Below the pieces are notes generated by a model. That model searched no databases. It was not told where the DNA came from and saw nothing but the letters and a program-made list of their open reading frames with translations. From the NCBI GenBank assembly GCA_965178125.1, contig OZ237761.1, positions 186,001 to 250,000 of the forward strand: a stretch of DNA of 64,000 bases, read 5' to 3'. The stretch comes from Bilabrum cf. latius (taxonomy: Eukaryota). Both the position numbers and the translations under genes were made by a program. Below are positions 37,527 through 63,303 of the stretch, piece by piece; position 1 is the first letter of the stretch; every line of letters starts with the position of its first letter.

Positions 37527-37981
37527 ATGCAGTCCACCAGTGTATTCGTACTGGTCTCTACAGCATCGTTTCTTGGACTTTGCTTCTTGTGTAGTGTTGA
37601 TGCACTTCGTGAAACGCAGCAACAAAAACTTTCGCAGTCCTAGGGGAGCTAGCCGCAGTGCTTTCGGTCCTCCCGCCACCGAAACTCGTCCTCCGGGTCG
37701 CTATTGCAAGTGTCTATCCCAACACCACCTCACGTTCCAGTTGTTTGGCTAGATGGCGGGTACATTTGGGAATCGGAGGGCCTCCTGCAGTCGTGCAAGC
37801 CCAGCAAGCCTGAGGAGTGTGAGAGGGAGCCGATCGCTGTCGTCAAGATTGGCAAGCGGAACTCCCATATGTTCGTGGTCGACGACGTGCTGATCAAAAA
37901 GATCGAACATGTGGCCACTCTCGTGGACGAATGCGAGCAAGGTGCTGTCTGCATCGGGTTTGTGGGCAACCCTGCCGGTGT
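37527..37981 (+). pseudogene. 5' part of an ORF interrupted by the virophage insertion
   Basis: Frame reads ...GFVGNPAG up to the TSD and rejoins the right flank in frame when the element and one TSD are removed; start codon uncertain. Confidence 0.65.
37977..37981. repeat. Left 5-bp target-site duplication GGTGT
   Basis: Same 5-mer at 61432-61436, immediately outside the TG...CA ends. Confidence 0.95.
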
Positions 37982-38082
37982 TGTTATCCGCCAAAATGTG
38001 GAGTTATGATAACTCTATTTCTACTATATAGTAGAAATAGAGTTTACTTATATAAAAACTACACACATTTTGGCGGATAACA
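37982..38082. repeat. 101-bp terminal imperfect palindrome (hairpin-forming)
   Basis: 19-bp outer arms TGTTATCCGCCAAAATGTG / CACATTTTGGCGGATAACA and a central perfect 34-bp palindrome. Confidence 0.95.
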
Positions 38083-39458
38083 TAAGAGGTCAATATTAAC
38101 CACTTCACAACATCTTAAGCCGTAGTCCTTCATAATGTCCTTCACTTGAACATAATAATTTAATAGCTATTTATTCATATATCTACCTAATTTAATACCT
38201 TCGCGCCGTTAATGTCTATCTGTTAGACCTTTACTTTACTTAATCTGTTGAGTGAATCCCTAGCCTAAGTCTTAGGATATGCCCGCCCGAAATTGCGGAA
38301 ATATATAGTCATTTAAGAATATATGTTCGCAATTCTGGGCGCGTAGGTGTATTGAGTTTTATATTATGATTTGGTTTTAAGTATCAATTGACATTTACCA
38401 CTTTAGAAAATAACTAAATAAATACTTAAAGAGATTGACAGAAGTATTAAAGTCTTTTTAATACTTCCAATGAAAAATTTAAATTAATAAATAAAACTAA
38501 ACTAATATATCAACTTAATTTATCTCTTTTTTTATTACTTGTCAATCTATACTTAAATAATTGAATATTTAAATATAACTAGAAGGAGATATTAATCACT
38601 TTATAAAGTCTTTTATATGTCATCTCTTCAAAACTTCAAATATAAGGGTATCCCCTTAAAAATACATTCTTTTATCTATCGCCCGAAATTGCGGTAATAT
38701 TATAGCTATTCAAGATATATTTCTGCAATTCTGGGCGCGTAGGTGTATTGATTTTTATTTTTCATAATTCTTTAAATATGTTAAAGTCCTTTGTTTGAGT
38801 ATATGATATAAAGGAATACAAAGCGGGATAACTTAAAAATGATAAATGTTTTGACGATGACTTTAAAATGACTCAATGAACTGGTTTATGTCAAGTGTAT
38901 TACTTTGAAATGATTAATCACTAGATTAAATGGAAAATATAGGATAATAAAATATGGTATAGTATAATACTAGCGCCCGAAATTGCGGTAATATATTAGG
39001 ATATTAAGATATATTGTCGCAATTCTGGGCGCGTAGGTGTATTGAGTTTTATATTTTGTTAATTTTGACATAGTTATCTTATAGAGGTGTAATTTTGTAA
39101 TAAAGATATTTCTAGTATGTGCTATATTAAATGTCCAGAAATGACGGCCCGAAATTGCGGTAATATATTAGGATATTAAGATATATTGTCGCAATTCTGG
39201 GCGCTTAGGTGTCTTCAATAATTAATAATCAACTACTTCTTTATTTTGATTAATTTTTTTGACTTACCGTTCATTTTATTGACCACTTAACGGGATATCA
39301 CAAAAAGACTTAACCACTTGACGAGATATTTTAAAATAACTAATAATAAATATGACCGCCCCAAATTGCGGAAATATATAAGTATCAAGAAAATTATGTT
39401 TGCAATTCTGGGCGCTCACCCGTATTCAATTTTACATATTCACTAAGTCATACCACTT
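37982..39458 (+). repeat. Left terminal inverted repeat (~1477 bp)
   Basis: Near-identical reverse complement of 59954-61431, except for the terminal 101 bp, which is in direct orientation. Confidence 0.95.
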
Positions 39459-40003: not shown

Positions 40004-42802
40004 ATGACGACCGAACACATATCTAACCCTGTTTATTTCTCAATAGCTCACAACTCTAAACAACCACTTATTAAGTCTTGGTAGAATTTGGAATCTACTA
40101 AACTTATCACCAGAAAGTCAAATCTTAATGTTGGATTACTTACTGGAAGACGTGCAGGTTTCTTTGTCCTTGACTTAGATTGTGAAAAAGAGAAAAATAA
40201 AACTGAATTTCAAAATGGTAAGTTTATTGCGGAATATGGTAGTGTTGATAAGTTTATTCAAGAGATGAATACTTACACTGTCAAGTCTCCCAATGGATAT
40301 CATTTGTATTTTAAGTATGAAGAAGAGTTTAGTAAGAGGTCAGTAAATAGAAAAGAACATATAGATGTGATCACAAATGATAGCTTTATCATGTGTCCTC
40401 CTAGCTCTATCAACGGTAAGAAATACGAACTAATACAAAAGACATCCGTGAAAAGAATACCAACTGACGTCAAGATGTTCATACTACAAAATATCTATTC
40501 ACCACAACTTACAGCTGAAGACTACCGTTATATGATTAAACCCGAAGAATACAAACAATACTTATATCAATTAGGTAAAGAGTATTATTCTAATTCATAT
40601 AACTGGCATCTAGTTTGTAGAGCTACAAGTTATATCGCTAAATACTTAAATCCAGTAGATGGTAATAAGGTATATGATATATTTGATGAATGGAGCAAAC
40701 AAGACGTAGAAAGCTATTAGTCGACTAAGAACAAGATAATTTTTACTCGATTATTACAAAATTCCACTTTTCAATGTGTTGAATGGTTCTTTAACTAGTT
40801 AGATAGTGAAAAGAAACGACTTAGCCTATATTATCGATACAAGATATTCAAGAATAAAGTAGTCAAGAAAGTCAATTAGAAGATTGACCGTAGATATTTG
40901 ACTGCTGACGACAAAGGTCGTTATATTAAATTCTTTAAGAAAGGTATCAACTATGCCGTTAAGTCGGGGGCTGGTTCTGGAAAGACAACTGCTGCTAATG
41001 ATTTATTTAATAGAGTAGATGACAGCTTTTTATCAGTTGTTAGTCGTATTTTATTAGGTAAGCAATAGATGCGTAGTCTTCCAAAATCAACTAAATTCTA
41101 TCAAGACCATAAATACAAATAGGGTGATAGTATTGTTATTACTCCTGAAAGTATTGTTAGTCTTAGCAATTATAACTTTAAGGATTATATTGTCTTTTTA
41201 GATGAGTTTAATAGTATCTTAGAACACTGTTTAAGTTCTACGACTTTATATGGTAGGCGACCAATGAGTTTCATTACTCTTATTCGTGCTCTTACCACTT
41301 GTAAGTAGTTCATAGTAGCAGATGCTGACTTATCTCAAGATGCTCTATATTTCTTAGAATTATTAAAATTAGATTATCAATATATTAGGAATGACAGAAA
41401 CAGGTTCAAGGGCACCAAAACTGTATTTGTTAATGACGAACAGACTTTTAGAGATGAGTTAATGAAACACAAGAAATTTATGCTTGCTAGTGATAGTAAG
41501 ACAAAAGCTGATATAATCAATGAGTTAATTAGTCTTAAAATTATAGATAACGAGAAAGATAAGAAATTAAATAAAATCTTAATACTTACAGCAGAAAGCG
41601 AAGACAAAGACTATGATATGGATTTGTTTGATATCATTATCTTCTCACCTAAAGTCATTTACGGGATAGATAGCACTATGACTAGACCAGTCTTTGGTTA
41701 TTTCAAAGGTCATACTATCACACCTCCCCAAATGGTTCAATAGCTTAACAGATGTAGAAACCCATCACATATCACTATATTTTTTGATTACTAGAAAGGA
41801 CGATCTAGCACATATGAAAGTCTTTCACAAGTTAAATCTTTTATGGCTACCTCTTTAAAAGACTACGAAGAATTAGTTAAATTTGTCAGTGATACATATC
41901 CCGACTTCAACGAGGTAGAAGTAGAAGACAAAGTAGAAGAAGAAATGAGCAAAGTTAAAATCATATTCAAGAAACTATATCGTAATTATCTTTACAAGGT
42001 AGATTGTTATAAGACAAACCCTAAATTACATATGATCAAGTAGTTAATTGATACCGGTTATGACGTGTCTTATGATTTATCTGTTAAGATCACCAGATGT
42101 AAGGATAAAGAAATCAAAGATACCATTAAAGAAAAACAACTTGAAAATTTTGATATTAATTGTCTTAATGTCAAGAAGATTAATAAATATTTAGACTTAG
42201 ATGAAGGTGATATTGACAAATACAAAGAGTACTTTATTAATAAAGGTAAGTTATCTAATTTATTTAATTTCAATAAATTCTTTAGACAAGATGATAAGCA
42301 CTTACTTGTGAAAGCAATTAATAAAGGCGAGTTTGATATTATCAATGCTAAGTCTAGTTCTAGAAAATTAGTCTTACTTAATAAGATGATTGATACTTTA
42401 GGTCTTAAAAGAACTAATCTTGATTATAATATCAAAAAGAAAGTATTAGATCAAGACTTAACAGATGAATATAGGACAGTGTATGACTGCCAAAGAAGAA
42501 GTAAAGTTGACTTATCCACTGATAAAGGTCTTTATTACGAAATACTTAAAGTATATAAATCAATGTTTGGGAAAGACATATTTATGACTTGTAAGAAAAA
42601 GAAAATTAACTATGATGTAGAATTTAATTAGGATATTATTGATGAGATGGAATATATCTGGTCTAACAAGAAAAAGACTCGTGAAGTAGATATATTTGTT
42701 GATGATGAAGAGGTTCAATTACCCGATGAAGAGATAGAGGTTGACTTAGACCCCGCTTTATTTGTTGATGAGGATAATGATCCACTAGAACAACAAAATT
42801 AA
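40004..42802 (+). CDS. Bifunctional primase-polymerase (AEP) fused to a UL9/origin-binding-protein-like SF2 helicase, 932 aa
   Basis: KQPLIKSW*, NVGLLTG...FVLDLD and GYHLYF (PrimPol); PriCT-like IFDEWSK; KSGAGSGKTT, FLDEFNS, ADADLS, FSPKVIYGID and VQ*LNRCR helicase motifs; 11 in-frame TAG and no TAA/TGA until 42800. Confidence 0.85.
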
Positions 42803-44910: not shown

Positions 44911-46797
44911 TCACATATTGAGCTACTTTCTAAGTTTCATAAGTTGAGCCTTAGTTAATTTCTTACCTCCACTGGTCAAAAGACTTCCACCACTAGTTAA
45001 AAGACCTGCTCCAACACGTTCAGCTAGGTCATTCACTTCATCGGGTAAGTATTCACTTACTGCTTGTCTTGCTTTACGAAGAGCTGGTTTCACTTTATCA
45101 AATTTAGCTTTAGCTTTCTTTCCAAAGTCTACCACTTTACGTCCTAAGTCTTTAGCTTTGTTAAAGGCTCTCTTAAAGAATTGCATCACTTTACGACGTC
45201 TTCCACCTAATACGTTCTTAGAGTAGTTCATATTAGAAAATGTATAATTAGAAGGTTTAGCCACTTTCTCAGGGTCAACAGAAGCACTATCTTCACGCCA
45301 TTCAATAGCGGCACCTCTAGTATTCACGATAATCTTGTCATAGGCACAGAATAATTGAGCTTTATATCCTTGAGACATAGCAGCGGTTGGGGGTTCGTCA
45401 TAGGCTACTTGAACACGAATACTAATAGGGTCAGCACTGTTGCTTTGAATAGTTTCAGGAGTATTTAAATCACTAAGTCTAAATAAGAGCCAGCCATTAG
45501 ATCCGTATACTTTAGAAGCACCTCCTACAGTTACATCTAAGTTAGTAAAAGAAGCATACTCACTATTTGATCCATTTCTTTCACTAAGTCTAAAGATATC
45601 GTCTTGTGTAAGTTCTCCTAAAATAGAACCCTAAGACCTAAGTTGTACTTTAATATTGTTAATGGCAAGTGTTCTATGAGGTGTACCACTAGCTTCTCCA
45701 TATTGAGAATCAACTAAGCACACAGCAAACCAAGAAGGGCAAGTCTAAAGTTGATAATTATTAAAAGTATGGACACCTTTAGTAGTGATAGGATTATCAA
45801 GTTTAGGCTCTTCATGTAGTTCAAAGTCAACAGAGTTGTAGAATATTTGTTTAGGTACTTTCTTCAAGAAGTTAAGATGAGTATTATAAGTAAAGACATC
45901 AAAATGGATCTAGCAATCGGATAAAGCAAAAGCATAGTCTCCATTCCAATCACTTGAAGTATTAAACATCTTATCAATTAAGTTATTTCTCATTTGTAAA
46001 TTAACATTTAATTGTGGATGATCAACAAAAGGTCTAGCATTACCACCCATCATATATTGGAAAGGACGTGCAAGAAGTGCTTCAGAGATTTCAATATGTA
46101 ATTTGACATAGTCTTGAGTTGGTGTTACATTATTATTAGGTATTGGAGTATTAGCATCCACTTTTTCAAGTGTTGCGCGGTAATTCTTACCAGGACCGCG
46201 AGCTTCCATAATACTATCATCATTTACACCCCATTGAAGGACAGACTTAGCAAGACCATTTGCGGCAGTATTAAATTCCCAAGTGTTATCAGCCTAAAAG
46301 ACAGGACTTATTTGTGCTAGAGTGGCACGGTCAAGACTTCTAGCTATTAAATTGACTAATTGATAAGGTGATGAACTACGAGATAAGTCTCCCATTTTAA
46401 CTGTGGAACTTGTGATCATTGAATTTACCATAAATGTAGAAGGGGCTACCTTATTGACGATATCAGTTTGAGCTACTGCTCCATTGTTCTAACTATCATA
46501 GATGTATACGTCAAATGAAACTCTTAGACGGGGATTACTGTCAGTCATTCCTTGATTTGATGGCACTACGAAAGTATAATTACTTCTAAATGCATTAGTT
46601 GCGCTAGAGTTACCACCATCTGGTTCGTAGTGATTTTGAAACTTGGAAGAGTATCCAAGGGTAGTTCCTAGAGTAATAGCTTGACTATCACCCACAAAGT
46701 TGAGTTTTTCGTCAGCTATTTGAGTTACTGGTAGTTCTGAGACGTCATCTACGACTTTGCTTTGTGCTGCTACAGGTACATTATCCATATCAGACAT
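44911..46797 (-). CDS. Virophage major capsid protein (double jelly-roll), 628 aa
   Basis: Three same-frame track ORFs joined by TAG; size, position after the penton, beta-rich sequence, and a basic C-terminal tail after VLGG with LLTSGG repeats. Confidence 0.85.
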
Positions 46798-46839: not shown

Positions 46840-47766
46840 TTAAGTTATTAACTTTTTACTTTTAAATAGAGCTTTTATATTAAGTCCTTGTCCAAAAGTA
46901 AAGGGTATTTCGTATAAGTTTCCAAAAGTATCTCTAAAATACGGTACTATACTATAACTATTAAATGCTGATCTATAGAACTATTGCCATCTATGATTTC
47001 CTCCACTACTAAAGTTTATTTTAATAAAACTCGTTCCTGTTGTATTGTCTATCTTGAAATCACTTAAGATATTTTCACTTTGTATCTCTGTACTAGATGT
47101 ACTTTTATATGATGGCGTAAATTCTGGAAGTATTGGAAGTGATGGACTAATAATTTGAATATACTCCATAGTAGGAAACTAATCTAAGGTAGAAGCACTC
47201 TATTCATTATATCCATCTAATAGATTTATATAAGTATCACTCTTGATGTCTTTACCTTCATCGTCATATTCAAATGTCTCAAAGATAGAGAATAAAGGAA
47301 AGTTAAAACTTAAAGTCCACGCACTTGTAAAAGCGGCTAAACGGGTGAAACTAAATGTTTTAGTCTTACCGTGATATTCAAATACTATACTATCAGTTGG
47401 AATACTAGCATCTCCACATAAATCACTAAGAGTATTATTAAATTCATTAGATAGGGTCTTAAGACTATAATATAACGGCTTAGTTAAGACAATATTACGA
47501 GTGTAAGTAGTTCCATCACTCTTCTTCACAAACGACATCTTATAAATTGACTAATTATCGCTATTCTTTACTTCTTTACTTGCTACAAATAAAGGAATAC
47601 GACATTTAAGAGTCCATCGGTCAAGTGATAATAAGTAGTTTTGTGAATTTGTCAAGATATTACCTTGACGCTGTTCATGTATTGATACTGGTCTATTAGT
47701 ATTAATAGATGTTATAGTATCCTATGAGTTAATATAAAAGATATCTGGTTCTTGAATCTCTACCAT
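46840..47766 (-). CDS. Minor capsid (penton) protein, 308 aa
   Basis: Lies between protease and MCP; IISPSLPI..E and ILSDF motifs; single frame with TAG read-through. Confidence 0.8.
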
Positions 47767-48126: not shown

Positions 48127-48675
48127 TTAACTAATTATCAAAGTAATAAGTTCATCATTATCTAGTCCTCCTCCATACTTTTTAAAAGCCTTCTTTAATT
48201 GACTATTAAACTAATCATTCGTCAAGTGATGGAATAATATCCTGAGCACACACCACCTCCCGCATGTGGCAGAGTTATTTGATATTAATTGATTCTTTTG
48301 ATTTGAATAGTCAACATTAATACCAGCATCTAATACGTGATCTATTAGAAGACTACTTCTATCATATAGCTTCTATGGGTCTATGACTCCACCTACAACT
48401 GGAATATGAGTATCAGGTAATTGACCATAACTATCCCAAAAATAAAGAGTATTCTTTGATTTGTTAAATATGACCGCAGTATAATGACCGCTCATTGTTG
48501 CTCCTTCTACTAAGTTAGGATAATAAAGGACAAATAAAGGATTTTCATCTAGAAATTGTCTGATGTTATTAGTATCACTTATTTCTTCATACATTATAAC
48601 TGGTATATGCTACTTTGTAAATGTAAAGTATAGTCTTTGTACCTCTTCAGGACTTAATGCAGTGGTTATATCCAT
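48127..48675 (-). CDS. Virion maturation cysteine protease (adenain/Ulp1-like), 182 aa
   Basis: SGHY, FWDSYG and Q...ATCGRWC catalytic motifs; the catalytic Cys lies beyond an in-frame TAG at 48373. Confidence 0.9.
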
Positions 48676-48694: not shown

Positions 48695-49762
48695 TTAATA
48701 TACGAACATCTATTTAGGACAAGTGATAAAATTATAAGTCTTATTAATACATAGCCATCTATTACCTTCTCCAAACAATTTATAAACACGATTTATAAGA
48801 CTTGCATCAAATCCTAAATATGCTTTCATTAAATATTTGCTAAATTTCCATAGATTTCTCTTAAATAAAATAATATTATGACTTTCCATGACTATTGACC
48901 TAGTATTCGCATAATCATTCGTTAAATGACTTATAACTATCATATTTGTTGAGCTATGTCTTCCAACTTCACCTATACGCTTAATTAAGAATAACGCTCT
49001 CTACTTTTTATCACCGTTTAAGGCTTCATAATCATCAAATACCACCACAGAAGGACCCTATTTTGCCCATTCTTCATACAATGGAGTAGTGGTAAATGAT
49101 GCCTTTGTCTTGTCTTTACTTGTTGGTTTCATTCTTTCTATCTCTATCTCTCTTTTAATTAATTCATGAGGTTCTAATGACTTCTTTTCCTACCTAAAGA
49201 ATATCTTTTCTTCTTTGTATTTCCTCATTAAGTCATCATAACTATCGTTTCTATCTACTGCTACTAATTTATCAATATCAATAAAATTACCATATTTTAA
49301 ATAAGTTGGATTTGTTTCCTGTACTGGTGTAATGACTAAAACCCTCTTCTTTGGAATGAACATATGATAATACTTGAGTAAAGACTTAGCAATATAAGAC
49401 TTACCAGCACCAGCCTAACCACTTAAATAGTGTATTTGTCTTTTGGTCTCATCATCAAAGAATGGGACTATTTCAAACTAACTCTTATCATCTATTCTTA
49501 ACTCGTTAGTCTTTCTAACTAGTTTTTTATTTCCATTCACTAGCTTACACATCTCTTCACGTAATGCTTTTTTATTCTTCTCATATTTAATTGCTCTCTT
49601 TCCATAATACTCTTCAAGTAAATCATCACTTATATCTTCTGGAGTTATGACTTTTTCCCCTACATCTTCACTAAAAAAGACGCTTTTGTTCCTCTTCTTG
49701 TGCTTGTATTCTCTTAAAGCAACTAAATGACTATTTGGTATTTCATCGTATGATAATGACAT
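48695..49762 (-). CDS. FtsK/HerA (A32-like) DNA packaging ATPase, 355 aa
   Basis: Walker A SG*AGAGKS with TAG inside the motif, Walker B VVVFDDYE, and GRH...IVISH. Confidence 0.9.
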
Positions 49763-55728: not shown

Positions 55729-56409
55729 TCATTTTAATAAGATATTTTTAAACTTTGTAAAGTTATCATGAATTTTATCACTATCACCCCAGCACACTTT
55801 AGCATACCATAAGTTGCTGTCATACATATCGGTCTCATCAAAATGAATATGTCCTAATACTCGCTTTCTCATTTTATCAGCGTGTGATTTACCTCTTCTT
55901 AAAGCATCAGGATAAGTCTATGTATTCTTTTTGTTAAAATATACCTTTGTATCATTAATCTCTACACAATAAACATATTCAGGTTTATCACTCACTGTAA
56001 GATCACTAATATTGATTTTTGGTTTTGGTTTCTCTTTAATTGGTTTCTCTTCAATGACTTCACTCACTACTTCACTACTTGTATCACTATATGTATCATT
56101 CAAATAGTCTTCCTCTTTATTATCCTCTATGTCTTCGCTATCTAATTCAACATCTTCCAATATAGCCTATTGTCGTTCTAATTGTGGAGGTTTTAACTAG
56201 ATAGGTTCTATTTTAGACGGTTGTCTCACTAAATTTATAGTTGCTATCTCGTCCCCTTCATCATCTATTTCACCCTATAAACTTGAATAATGCTTGTTAA
56301 TCCATAACATTTTTAAGTCATCACGAGACCACTTGTACTTTTCACTTAACTTGACTACTCTTTTTAGAAGGTCTTTATTTTTGTATCTTGTTATATTTAA
56401 CAATTCCAT
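55729..56409 (-). CDS. Viral hypothetical protein (226 aa), acidic centre
   Basis: Frame open through 4 TAGs to TGA 55729. Confidence 0.6.
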
Positions 56410-56639: not shown

Positions 56640-58295
56640 TTATCTCTATCTATCAGAATAGTCTTTCGCAAGTGGTCGTATTTGGTCTTTCCCATAATCC
56701 TATTCTAATTTCTTACGGGTAATCCATTCATTAAACTTATTAGAATATCCCTTATATTTGACTAAGTATTCAATAAGTCTATCTTTATTTTGTCTTTTAT
56801 CTAAAAACTTCTCTATTGTGTCTGGTTCTACTTCTAAACCTTCAACATTATCAATTTCAGGCTCTTCACTTTCCTTGTCTATGTCATCATTTACCTTATC
56901 TTCGTGTTCTACATTGTCTATTTTCTATAACTGTGAAGCATTAAAGAATCCAGTAAGAGGTTCTCCCTCTTTGTCCATTACTTTATATTTAATCCTCTAC
57001 TTAGGATTTCTTGGTTTGGTCTTCTATCTAACAGTGAAGACTTCTCTAGACCAATTAAATAAATTTCCTTTAAACTTGTTCTTCTCAAGTAATACTCTAA
57101 CTCTATCCCCTACATTAAGATCTTTATCATTCCCGTCAAAATTATTTGATAATTTCTTATTTTCAATTCTAGATCTAACTACTTCTAAATTTTCGGGTTT
57201 CATTGCTTCTAGTGGAGACATTCCTATAGTGTTGTGTTTTCTCTTATTATATGCTCTTACTAGTCTCTATAATGACGTATGCCAAACACCATCACTGTCA
57301 TTCTTAATAGCAAAGTCTTTTCTAATCTATTCTTTTATAGTCCTATTAAGTCTTTCAACTGCACCATTAGACTATGGATTTCCTGCGATGGTGAATAGTG
57401 GTTTTATGTCATTGTCATTCATAAATTTAATATATGCCTCTTTATTAAACTCATTATCACTTAACATAACAGTCGGTTTTCTCCAATTAGGTTTCTTAAA
57501 TAGTTTCTTCATCTCACGAATTATATTAACTAATGTCTTATCTTTTAATGAAATACTCCATAGGTATTTTGTGAATATATCCATTATATTTAATATCCAA
57601 TTATAGCCGTCATTAGTGTCTGAATACTTTTGCATGTCTATTAAGTCCAAGGCGTAAATTGAGAAAGGCTTAGTAGGTACAAAAGAACTTACTGCTGACT
57701 GTTTAGGTCGTTTTTTGGTCAATTGGTGGAGCATCTAGTTATTTAACCACTTTTCTACTTGTCGTCTTTTAATACGTTTATCTTTTTGTCTAGCTAGGTC
57801 ATATAACGCATCACGACTAACTACATTACCTTCTTCATAATATAGTTTCTTTAATATTGGTTTATAATTAAATTTGTCTTTGTCGTCCTCATCTTCTACT
57901 TCAATTAACTTACCGGTTGGTTTATTAAGTTTTTTCGTCTAAGCTTTAGTCATCTTATAAAAAAGGCGAACAAGGTTAGACTATTGAACGCTAAAATGAA
58001 CACGACTCACTAAGTTATATAAAGTGAAATAGTCTCCATCCTTCTATATTGAGTTAATTACCCCACCTCTTCTAAATAGTGGCTTTCCCTTGATATTACT
58101 TACATAAGATACATAAGAATATAAAGGTATTTTTTTAATACTTGCTTTGGTAGTTGGTACCTCTTCAAATCCTTTATCAAGTAGTCCCTTAATAGTGGCT
58201 TCTAAATTATCACTATCTTTTTGATTTTTTGTCGGTTCATCACCATACGTGTAAGATATTTTACCTCTAGTGTATGTCTTGCCTTTATTAGTCAT
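56640..58295 (-). CDS. Retroviral-type (rve, DDE) integrase with C-terminal chromodomain, 551 aa
   Basis: ALDLIDM, LSDNEF, GNP*SNGAVERLNRTIK, NWSREVF and IEKFLDKR...EYLVKYKGYSNKFNEW. Confidence 0.95.
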
Positions 58296-59762: not shown

Positions 59763-59972
59763 ATGATACAAGATTTATTAACTTAGTATATTGTCGGTAA
59801 GACTTGTAAATTAGTTATTAAATAGGTGAAGACAACCAAGACATATCATACGACTAAATCATATGTTAAGGACTAGTTAGAAGAAGTACTCAATACATTG
59901 AAACAAGTTAAAGGACATTCTAAATGTGAACACAAGATCAAATGGACCACTTCAAGTGGTATGAGTTAGTGA
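59763..59972 (+). CDS. Possible small viral ORF (69 aa)
   Basis: Open with TAG read-through from ATG to TGA, but only 8 bp from the divergent ATG. Confidence 0.3.
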
Positions 59973-61431
59973 ATATGTAAAATTGAATACGGGTGAGCGC
60001 CCAGAATTGCAAACATAATTTTCTTGATACTTATATATTTCCGCAATTTGGGGCGGTCATATTTATTATTAGTTATTTTAAAATATCTCGTCAAGTGGTT
60101 AAGTCTTTTTGTGATATCCCGTTAAGTGGTCAATAAAATGAACGGTAAGTCAAAAAAATTAATCAAAATAAAGAAGTAGTTGATTATTAATTATTGAAGA
60201 CACCTAAGCGCCCAGAATTGCGACAATATATCTTAATATCCTAATATATTACCGCAATTTCGGGCCGTCATTTCTGGACATTTAATATAGCACATACTAG
60301 AAATATCTTTATTACAAAATTACACCTCTATAAGATAACTATGTCAAAATTAACAAAATATAAAACTCAATACACCTACGCGCCCAGAATTGCGACAATA
60401 TATCTTAATATCCTAATATATTACCGCAATTTCGGGCGCTAGTATTATACTATACCATATTTTATTATCCTATATTTTCCATTTAATCTAGTGATTAATC
60501 ATTTCAAAGTAATACACTTGACATAAACCAGTTCATTGAGTCATTTTAAAGTCATCGTCAAAACATTTATCATTTTTAAGTTATCCCGTTTTGTATTCCT
60601 TTATATCATATACTCAAACAAAGGACTTAAAACATATTTAAAGAATTATGAAAAATAAAAATCAATACACCTACGCGCCCAGAATTGCGAAAATATATCT
60701 TGAATAGCTATAATATTACCGCAATTTCGGGCGATAGATTAAAGGATGTATTTTTAAGGGGATACCCTTACATTTGAAGTTTTGAAGAGATGACATATAA
60801 AAGACTTTATAAAGTGATTAATATCTCCTTCTAGTTATATTTAAATATTCAATTATTTAAGTATAGATTGACAAGTAATAAAAAAAGAGATAAATTAAGT
60901 TGATATATTAGTTTAGTTTTATTTATTAATTTAAATTTTTCATTGGAAGTATTAAAAAGACTTTAATACTTCTGTCAATCTCTTTAAGTATTTATTTAGT
61001 TATTTTCTAAAGTGGTAAATGTCAATTGATACTTAAAACCAAATCATAATATAAAACTCAATACACCTACGCGCCCAGAATTGCGAACATATATTCTTAA
61101 ATGACTATATATTTCCGCAATTTCGGGCGGGCATATCCTAAGACTTAGGCTAGGGATTCACTCAACAGATTAAGTAAAGTAAAGGTCTAACAGATAGACA
61201 TTAACGGCGCGAAGGTATTAAATTAGGTAGATATATGAATAAATAGCTATTAAATTATTATGTTCAAGTGAAGGACATTATGAAGGACTACGGCTTAAGA
61301 TGTTGTGAAGTGGTTAATATTGACCTCTTATGTTATCCGCCAAAATGTGGAGTTATGATAACTCTATTTCTACTATATAGTAGAAATAGAGTTTACTTAT
61401 ATAAAAACTACACACATTTTGGCGGATAACA
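59954..61431 (-). repeat. Right terminal inverted repeat (~1478 bp)
   Basis: Reverse complement of 37982-39458 with few differences. Confidence 0.95.
61331..61431. repeat. 101-bp terminal imperfect palindrome, identical in direct orientation to 37982-38082
   Basis: Base-by-base comparison. Confidence 0.95.
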
Positions 61432-63303
61432 GGTGTGCCACATGATGCGTTCTAGGTTGCCATGAAACGAAGTGGGGCTTTCTCGGGAGCATTAATACGA
61501 ATGTATCTGTCATACTAGGAATCTCTTCACACGCTTGGTAAAGAGGCGAAGCTGGCCAAGGCTGGCCTGCGGGTGATCACTCTATCCAAACCGCCCAGGC
61601 TTGCTCATCTCTTTGGGCATATTTCATCATCCCACAATGTGGAAAACCCTGCACTTGCATCGCTGGGACATCCTGGCTGCAGCTAGCTTGGTCGGAAGAA
61701 GCTAGCCCAGCTGTATTGCCGTGACCCGAGCATGTTTTGGGGTTTATTTCCACCCCAGCCGGAGCCAAAACCAGTTGATGAGGCCGCAGCGGCTGCAAGT
61801 GGCCCGCAAAGAAAGAAGACTCAGCCCCCTGCGATCAAAGGCGGAGGGGCGGGTAAGCCCTCTACTGAAGAAGGCGCCGGTGCCGACGAGATTCGGGACC
61901 TGCGTGAGAAGAGCACTCGTTCTCAGCGCGATGCAGCAGCGAAGGTTCTGGGCGTCGGCGGCGATTCCCCGGAAGCGAAGAGGGTACGGAGTTCCGATGC
62001 CGCAAGCAGCAAAGTAAAGGGCTCGCCACCGCAAGCTGGCATAGAGAGCACCGACTCGGAGTCAGGTTCGGGCAATGACGGTGAGGGGGGAGTAGGCTCA
62101 GGCGAGGCAGTAGGTCCCACCAAAGAACAGGGTGTGGGCATTGCATAGGGTACGGGCAACGCTGGTGGCCAAGGCCAAGACAGCTCGGGCGGTGTACGAG
62201 GCAGGAGACCTGGTGCTGGGGATGGCACCTGTGCCGACGTGGAGTTCGGTGGATCCGATGATGAGGATGAAAAAGCGAACAAACAGGCGTTGGATACGTG
62301 CGTTAGTCTTCTCGAGTTCGAGCAAGGCGACGAGGACCCTGCAGCGAGAAAGTCTGTCGGTGCCAGAGTCCATGCAAGGAGGCAGCAGAGCATAGGCAGT
62401 AGTGAGGCCATGACAGAGGGTGAGAAAGGCGCAGGAGAAGGGGGCAATGCCGCCAGTGTTGAGGCCACGGACGTTTGCCGGGAGATGCTGAAGGCCAAAA
62501 AGGAGCAGGAGCTGTCGGCTCTATCTGCATAGGTAGGTGGGGCATCCAGCGGGGCGGGGGGCGACCGAAGTGGGCCTGCATGCGTAACTCCATCGTCGAT
62601 TGCTTTGGAGCAAGGGGCCCACAAGAGCATGGAAGCATTTGGAGCAATTCGAATGATGAACGAGGCCGGCCTGTCCGAGGTATTCATGCCCAAGGTGGAG
62701 GTAGGCGGCAAGTCCACGCTGAGGCGAGCACACCAGGAAGCACTTACAGGAGTGCGCAATCGGGCCGCTCCTTGGCTAGTGCTGTTGGACGATGGTGTGA
62801 TGCAGACTGTGCTGAGCAATGTGTACAAGTTTAAGCCAGGCGACGAGGGGGAGTACGGAGACGCTTGTGGTGCGACGGAAGCCACGCCACCATTCGAGCG
62901 GGTCCAGCGGGCGTACGTGCAGTTTGTGCTGAGCAAGCTCCAAGATGCTCTGCCAGAGGAATTTGACCTTGGTCGAAGGGCGGCTGTCCTAAAAGAGGTC
63001 CAGATAGCGGAGATAGCCGTCCGTATTTCGATGCTGGGCATCCAGGCTGTTCAATCATTGGAGGACTCCGTTGCGTACTTCTAGTAGGCTGGGCAAGCTA
63101 CTGATGCCAGTGCCGCTGACGCACAGGAACGCAGCCCACCAACAGGATCAAGTGCGGGTGACAGAGCTTCGAAGGTATTGACGCACGCCCAGAAATAGCG
63201 CGGATGGCACTGCTCCAAAACGATAGGATTGGCAGAAGCTAAGGCGTCCTGGTCGTCCGGGCCTCACCACTTCCGCTCGCTTGTGTTCCTAATGCCGATT
63301 TGA
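61432..63303 (+). pseudogene. Right TSD (61432-61436) and 3' part of the interrupted ORF
   Basis: Frame open from the TSD through ORFs 61732.., 62239.. and 62605.., joined only by TAG, to TGA 63301-63303. Confidence 0.7.

Follow-up and report, generated by a model that had tools for sequence, protein, structure and literature searches.

A 23,450-bp endogenous virophage in Bilabrum cf. latius ends on both sides in the same 101-bp imperfect palindrome, and the copy at the right end is flipped relative to the long inverted repeat that it terminates. The palindrome is tentatively interpreted as a hairpin-forming telomere or origin of a linear virophage replicated by a PrimPol-helicase, with the right end representing a fold-back (flop) isomer, a reading that we prefer while rating it as somewhat short of probable.

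Termini and insertion site of the element

The element occupies positions 37982 to 61431 of the window (the whole 64,000-nucleotide stretch analyzed, from contig OZ237761.1) and is AT-rich, at ∼30% GC, in surrounding host DNA of ∼55 to 70% GC. Its terminal features are as follows.

37977 to 37981, no strand: left target site duplication, GGTGT, present as a single copy in the empty-site contig
37982 to 38082, plus strand: left terminal 101-bp imperfect palindrome, canonical, with bubble d adjoining the inner repeat; its orientation is that of the dominant contig path
38083 to 39458, plus strand: inner left terminal inverted repeat, non-coding, with five copies of a 56-nt hairpin motif
59954 to 61330, minus strand: inner right terminal inverted repeat
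61331 to 61431, plus strand: right terminal palindrome, flipped relative to the inverted repeat, with bubble b adjoining the inner repeat; matches the left copy letter for letter as a direct repeat
61432 to 61436, no strand: right target site duplication, GGTGT, 5 bp, directly outside the right palindrome

The sequence-only reading had placed at each end a 101-bp imperfect palindrome with 19-bp arms, 10- and 19-nt bubbles, and a 34-bp core, and the same architecture was recovered here in the order a-b-core-d-a′ (19-bp arm, 10-nt bubble b, 34-bp perfect core, 19-nt bubble d, and 19-bp arm). Also borne out was its observation that the right palindrome repeats the left one beside inverted sequence. 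The two copies, at 37982-38082 and 61331-61431, form a direct repeat of 100% identity (repeat family D7), whereas the ∼1.38 kb adjoining them is inverted, with inverted-repeat arms at 38064-38782 and 60631-61349 (99% identity) and at 38781-39458 and 59954-60631 (100% identity). Since the two palindrome arms complement each other perfectly, what sets the right copy apart from a true inverted repeat is that its 63-bp interior is exactly inverted. The 560 bp of the repeat next to the palindrome are perfectly inverted, and outside the palindrome the inner repeats differ at ∼9 positions.

As single-stranded DNA, the palindrome folds at −32.8 kcal/mol, and none of 200 shuffled sequences folded as well (z = −13.6). 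An imperfect terminal palindrome able to form a hairpin, one of the features of hairpin-telomere genomes, is present. The 19-mer arm occurs four times in the window, each time within one of the two palindromes (0.01 occurrences expected), and no exact match to it was identified in viral contigs or metagenome contigs.

Differences private to the right repeat were located at 60771 and at an extra base near 60630-60632 (60629-60771 compared with 38642-38783), the left repeat carrying the majority form. No contig of the four sequencing runs used here showed these differences, and the right repeat at 60629-60771 may be either a diverged copy or a less accurate stretch of the assembly.

Read evidence was drawn from contigs assembled from four public runs of one sample (X1 to X4), which give neither isomer ratios nor copy number. 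Contigs from X1 and X2 link the left host flank (37947-37976) straight to 61432 with one GGTGT; thus, an empty allele exists and the boundaries of the element are exact. This empty allele sits at host depth in the public runs, and the insertion is therefore polymorphic or hemizygous. A host reading frame spans the empty site, with positions 37527 and 61462 in phase after removal of the 23,455 inserted bases. The pieces flanking the insertion lie at 37527-37981 and 61437-63303, and the interrupted frame is probably a gene. The sequence-only reading had proposed that terminal resolution supplies the 3′ end taken by the integrase, and the element begins with TG and finishes with CA, the termini that an rve integrase would be expected to use. 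Of the features that together mark integration, the terminal inverted repeats, the short target duplication, and the integrase of the rve type were all identified, as was the empty site.

Gene content and class of the element

Open reading frames (ORFs) were short under the standard genetic code, and reading TAG as sense and TAA as stop produced a tiled gene set. Two TAG codons of the replicase lie at columns with Gln in all 16 of the 16 distant homologues; TAG is thus taken to encode Gln in the element. The replicase gene has 11 TAG codons and 1 CAG. In-frame TAG codons are also found in host ORFs, for example 7 in the 613-amino-acid ORF at 61462-63303, and the host apparently reads TAG as Gln likewise, so that virus and host would share a variant code with TAA as a stop. 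The following genes were annotated.

40004 to 42802, plus strand: PrimPol-helicase replicase, 932 amino acids with TAG as Gln (Pfam Prim-Pol, E = 8.9e−14)
44911 to 46797, minus strand: virophage major capsid protein (Pfam MCP_V20_C above cut-off; PDB 6g45 and 6g43, E ∼1e−15)
46840 to 47766, minus strand: penton (minor capsid) protein (PDB 6g41, E = 7e−13; 3j26_N, E = 5e−5)
48127 to 48675, minus strand: probable cysteine maturation protease, a weak assignment (Peptidase_C57, E = 0.004, under the curated cut-off)
48695 to 49762, minus strand: probable packaging ATPase, a weak assignment (AAA_10 and AAA_22, E = 1e−5, slightly under the cut-offs)
56640 to 58295, minus strand: rve integrase with a C-terminal chromodomain (Pfam rve and Chromo above cut-offs; PDB integrases and a chromodomain chain)

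Homologues of the replicase carry PriCT_2, ResIII, and Herpes_ori_bp domains. A capsid of virophage type was identified by both Pfam and PDB comparisons and a penton by PDB comparison, the pair being one of the features expected of a virophage. A Pfam scan of 22 ORFs gave no PolB family member, including the protein-primed PolB (pPolB) that would mark a Polinton/Maverick, and as the replicase is a PrimPol-helicase, a Polinton identity was rejected. The predicted genes place the element among the mavirus-like endogenous virophages, in the kind lacking pPolB, like the mid-GC EMALEs. Mavirus has the same type of capsid and penton but carries a pPolB. The mid-GC EMALEs of Cafeteria burkhardae share with the element a 5′ primase/helicase, an rve integrase near the 3′ end, the lack of pPolB, short target duplications, and a low GC content within a GC-rich host (PMC8547959). 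The character strings "palindrom" and "hairpin" have no occurrences in that study (Hackl et al. 2021; PMC8547959).

With a PrimPol-helicase as the replicase and no pPolB, the ends could plausibly be maintained through hairpins, and the main objection to hairpin ends, that such genomes are protein primed, is removed. Using Pfam (E ≤ 1) and PHROGs, no nickase, resolvase, or HUH protein was recognized in the element. A 226-amino-acid ORF at 55729-56409 (minus strand) has a C-terminal YVY...VYF spacing that recalls GIY-YIG nucleases, with no match in Pfam or PHROGs.

Two families of short motifs accompany the genes. The 56-nt hairpin motif was found at 21 sites from 38285 to 61128, against 0 expected, and every copy lies within the element. 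It consists of GC-rich 13-nt arms and an AT-rich spacer, is intergenic and oriented with the neighboring gene, and occurs in five copies in each non-coding terminal repeat. The motif looks like a promoter cassette together with the "hairpin rule" that applies to mRNA 3′ ends in giant viruses and virophages. Analogous motifs with a different sequence were seen at loci L074, L005, and L006. A search with a 17-nt piece of the intergenic motif returned 84 plus 5 single matches, but the full 56-nt motif was present at 0 of these 89 loci and the matches were set aside as chance. A 44-nt AT-rich motif starting TATATATAGTGG occurs in five copies near gene starts between 43215 and 58341 (family D6) and may be a promoter.

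Orientation of the palindrome in sequencing runs and relatives

Repeat depth exceeded flank depth 11- to 20-fold in the four runs (675/51, 821/72, 594/45, and 1734/89), a ratio that is not a copy number. In X1, two contigs carried further GC-rich flanks adjoining the outer edge of the palindrome, which indicates additional insertions. Repeat depth, these other host flanks, and the empty site together show that the element is multicopy and recently mobile.

In all four runs, a single high-depth repeat contig proceeds from arm a into bubble d, read as its reverse complement, for 10 nt, which is the canonical arrangement. De Bruijn contigs end where there are two abundant continuations, in this case at the arm; since the high-depth contig runs uninterrupted past arm a, the flipped form is probably a minority. 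The joint that would mark a flipped end (inner repeat, arm a, and bubble b) was absent among the contig pieces listed for the four runs, although contigs lose minority paths and a lone flipped copy could exist unseen. The isomers observed are therefore one flipped end in the window and the canonical joint alone among the listed pieces of the four runs, from which minority forms can be dropped. This distribution suggests that the canonical isomer predominates and that flipping is occasional or asymmetric rather than 50:50. The dominant contig path also suggests that other copies have properly inverted palindromes at both ends. The mix of flip and flop across copies that the sequence-only reading had expected was not encountered among the listed pieces. 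Its broader proposal of a hairpin-ended genome kept its footing in the hairpin-capable palindromes beside the target duplications, the lack of pPolB, and relatives with palindromic or turn-around ends, while a regular flip/flop mix is weakly supported.

The same contigs bear on a second explanation put forward in that reading, a circle or concatemer junction, in which one palindrome would lie between the repeat arms and cuts on both sides would duplicate it as a 101-bp direct repeat. Direct palindromes would then arise at both ends with no inversion step. However, every copy would need direct palindromes, and the joint of inner repeat, a, and b would be expected at about half of the repeat ends, whereas the dominant contig is solely canonical. 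Integrases of the rve type also use linear CA-3′ ends and generate short duplications (5 bp here), and the contig of the related locus L074 stops precisely where its palindrome has its outer limit. A junction origin is considered very improbable.

An error of assembly or polishing, whereby the right end would in truth be reverse complemented and an incorrect consensus was reached in a multicopy palindromic repeat, would account for the lack, among the listed contigs, of both the flipped joint and the joint of d, a′, and the right flank, which no listed read-derived contig confirms, and for right-repeat differences that none of the contigs share. It is nevertheless judged improbable: the right copy is letter-perfect against the left over 101 bp, including the 9-nt length asymmetry, spanning reads would contradict a wrong consensus, and given that contigs lose rare variants, absence is what would be expected of 1 copy among ∼12 to 20 ends.

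Relatives of the replicase were not found in a single-protein scan. The replicase has a close match to two relatives, at 87 and 84% identity, and a more distant family at 25 to 33% identity. An alignment-based scan gave 80 IMG/VR loci. A palindrome at the true contig end was identified at 2 of the 80 loci, L074 and L052. L074 starts with a 102-nt palindrome with 31-nt arms and a T-shaped fold (z = −11.5), followed by a hairpin-motif array and then the primase-helicase gene, a layout matching that at the end of the element. The contig terminates precisely at the outer edge of the palindrome, which suggests a physical duplex end there; the opposite end of the L074 contig is without a palindrome. 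The end of L052 (13097-13194) is a 98-bp perfect turn-around palindrome with 49-nt arms, which looks like an assembler's passage through a hairpin end or a head-to-head junction, although it may be an amplification chimera. When folded, four other candidate contig ends proved either to be ordinary or to be intergenic hairpins.

A proposed fold-back model for the ends and its implications

In the preferred reading, a linear, integrase-bearing virophage would be replicated by its PrimPol-helicase without protein priming. After primer-dependent replication the terminal strand would fold back, with a pairing to a′, the core pairing with itself, and b and d forming the bubble. Copying of this hairpin, or its nicking and unfolding, would yield a complete duplex end in which the asymmetric interior is inverted, that is, the flop isomer. 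The integrase would then take the CA-3′ ends, which present the same 19 bp in both isomers, and generate the 5-bp target duplication, and the right end of the provirus would be a flop isomer fixed by integration. What is observed comprises the palindrome and its exact inversion, the limits of the element with their target duplication, the genes carried, and the lack of pPolB in the scanned ORFs; the hairpin intermediate, a nicking enzyme (the integrase or a helper-virus resolvase), and flipping in the virus rather than in the host chromosome are what we infer.

Fold-back is made plausible by the exact inversion of a 63-bp interior beside a perfectly inverted repeat, by the strong hairpin potential of the palindrome, and by a PrimPol-helicase replicase with no pPolB among the scanned ORFs. 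It is also favored by the end layout of L074, the turn-around of L052, the terminal palindromes described in the available text of a preprint (10.64898/2026.07.28.741278), and the multicopy, recently mobile state of the element. Against it are the single flipped end in a single copy, the canonical contigs in four runs, palindromic ends at only 2 of the 80 loci, and the lack of a nickase, resolvase, or HUH protein recognized by Pfam or PHROGs. The private differences of the right repeat also count against it, as they imply either time to mutate or a less accurate assembly.

A rival reading, unrelated to the replication of viral ends, is a one-off event in which host replication or repair inverted the 63-bp interior on the right side, at or after integration. 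Such an event may have proceeded by template switching across the hairpin or by cruciform processing between the 19-bp arms, and the palindrome may then be merely a binding site for the integrase or an initiator. Mutations in which a small segment is inverted between short inverted arms form a known class, as in the hairpin inversions of plastids. In the contigs of all four runs the canonical orientation is the dominant one, and the private right-repeat changes would mean that time has elapsed since insertion. However, the insertion appears young, since it is still polymorphic (the empty site) and interrupts a host reading frame, and terminal palindromes recur in this class of virophage, going by the available preprint text and by L074, which argues for function over accident. 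A one-off inversion is a real possibility but is regarded as rather unlikely.

Fold-back ends have precedents in other viruses. In parvoviruses, a terminal palindrome of ∼100 nt has its asymmetric interior inverted by hairpin transfer (the flip/flop of the AAV ITR), and the T-shaped fold of L074 resembles the AAV ITR. Parvoviruses have single-stranded DNA genomes and an HUH nickase, whereas the element has a 23-kb double-stranded genome and no HUH protein was found in it using Pfam and PHROGs. Poxvirus ends are covalently closed, and their two isomers are equimolar. Poxviruses, like the element, replicate with a primase-helicase and without a terminal protein; unlike poxvirus ends, those of the element are known from chromosomal duplex alone, the canonical isomer is apparently dominant, and an integrase is involved. 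Vaccinia telomeres are described, in the available part of one account, as mismatched flip-and-flop hairpins, A-T-rich, incompletely paired, and outermost on long inverted repeats, with the mismatches kept, the last four features being shared with the element (PMC8956199). Polinton-like virus (PLV) end modules have been tied to entomopoxvirus terminal sequences, again in the available part of the source (PMC11296320).

Among the closest counterparts are the endogenous virophages and PLVs of Halocafeteria seosinensis. The available text of the preprint cited above (10.64898/2026.07.28.741278) reports a preference of terminal palindromes that adjoin target duplications for those virophages and PLVs whose replicase is not a pPolB, and puts forward hairpin priming, with accidental annealing as the alternative. 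The present element has all the features that together define that group: an outermost palindrome in the terminal inverted repeat that abuts the target duplication, a replicase other than pPolB, and an integrase of the rve type. The palindrome figured for H. seosinensis is 52 nt, compared with 101 bp and an asymmetric interior here, and the hosts differ (∼62% GC with TAG as sense here, and 47% GC for H. seosinensis). No flipped isomer appears in the available text of the preprint, and among the matches listed for virophages, polintons, and Mavericks, none of the full texts contains a flip/flop term. For virophages of this kind, palindromic termini and priming by hairpins have thus already been reported, the latter as a model, and as far as the available preprint text goes, the flip alone is new.

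The flipped end bears on how linear ends are completed in virophages and PLVs without a protein-primed polymerase. Terminal palindromes had come to notice a short time ago, and the hairpin model had been proposed without evidence of a hairpin intermediate. Such an intermediate leaves traces of the sort seen here, namely an asymmetric palindrome that is exactly inverted at one end. The ratio of isomers across copies and in virion DNA offers a simple, countable test. More speculatively, and with doubt that it holds for the whole group, PrimPol-helicase virophages may have linear genomes with fold-back telomeres, either rolling-hairpin or poxvirus-like, that imitate how their giant-virus helpers deal with their own ends, and proviruses may keep each end as it was at integration, flip or flop. 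If the fold-back reading is true, hairpin transfer in the virophage and polinton world would have its first sequence footprint in this provirus.
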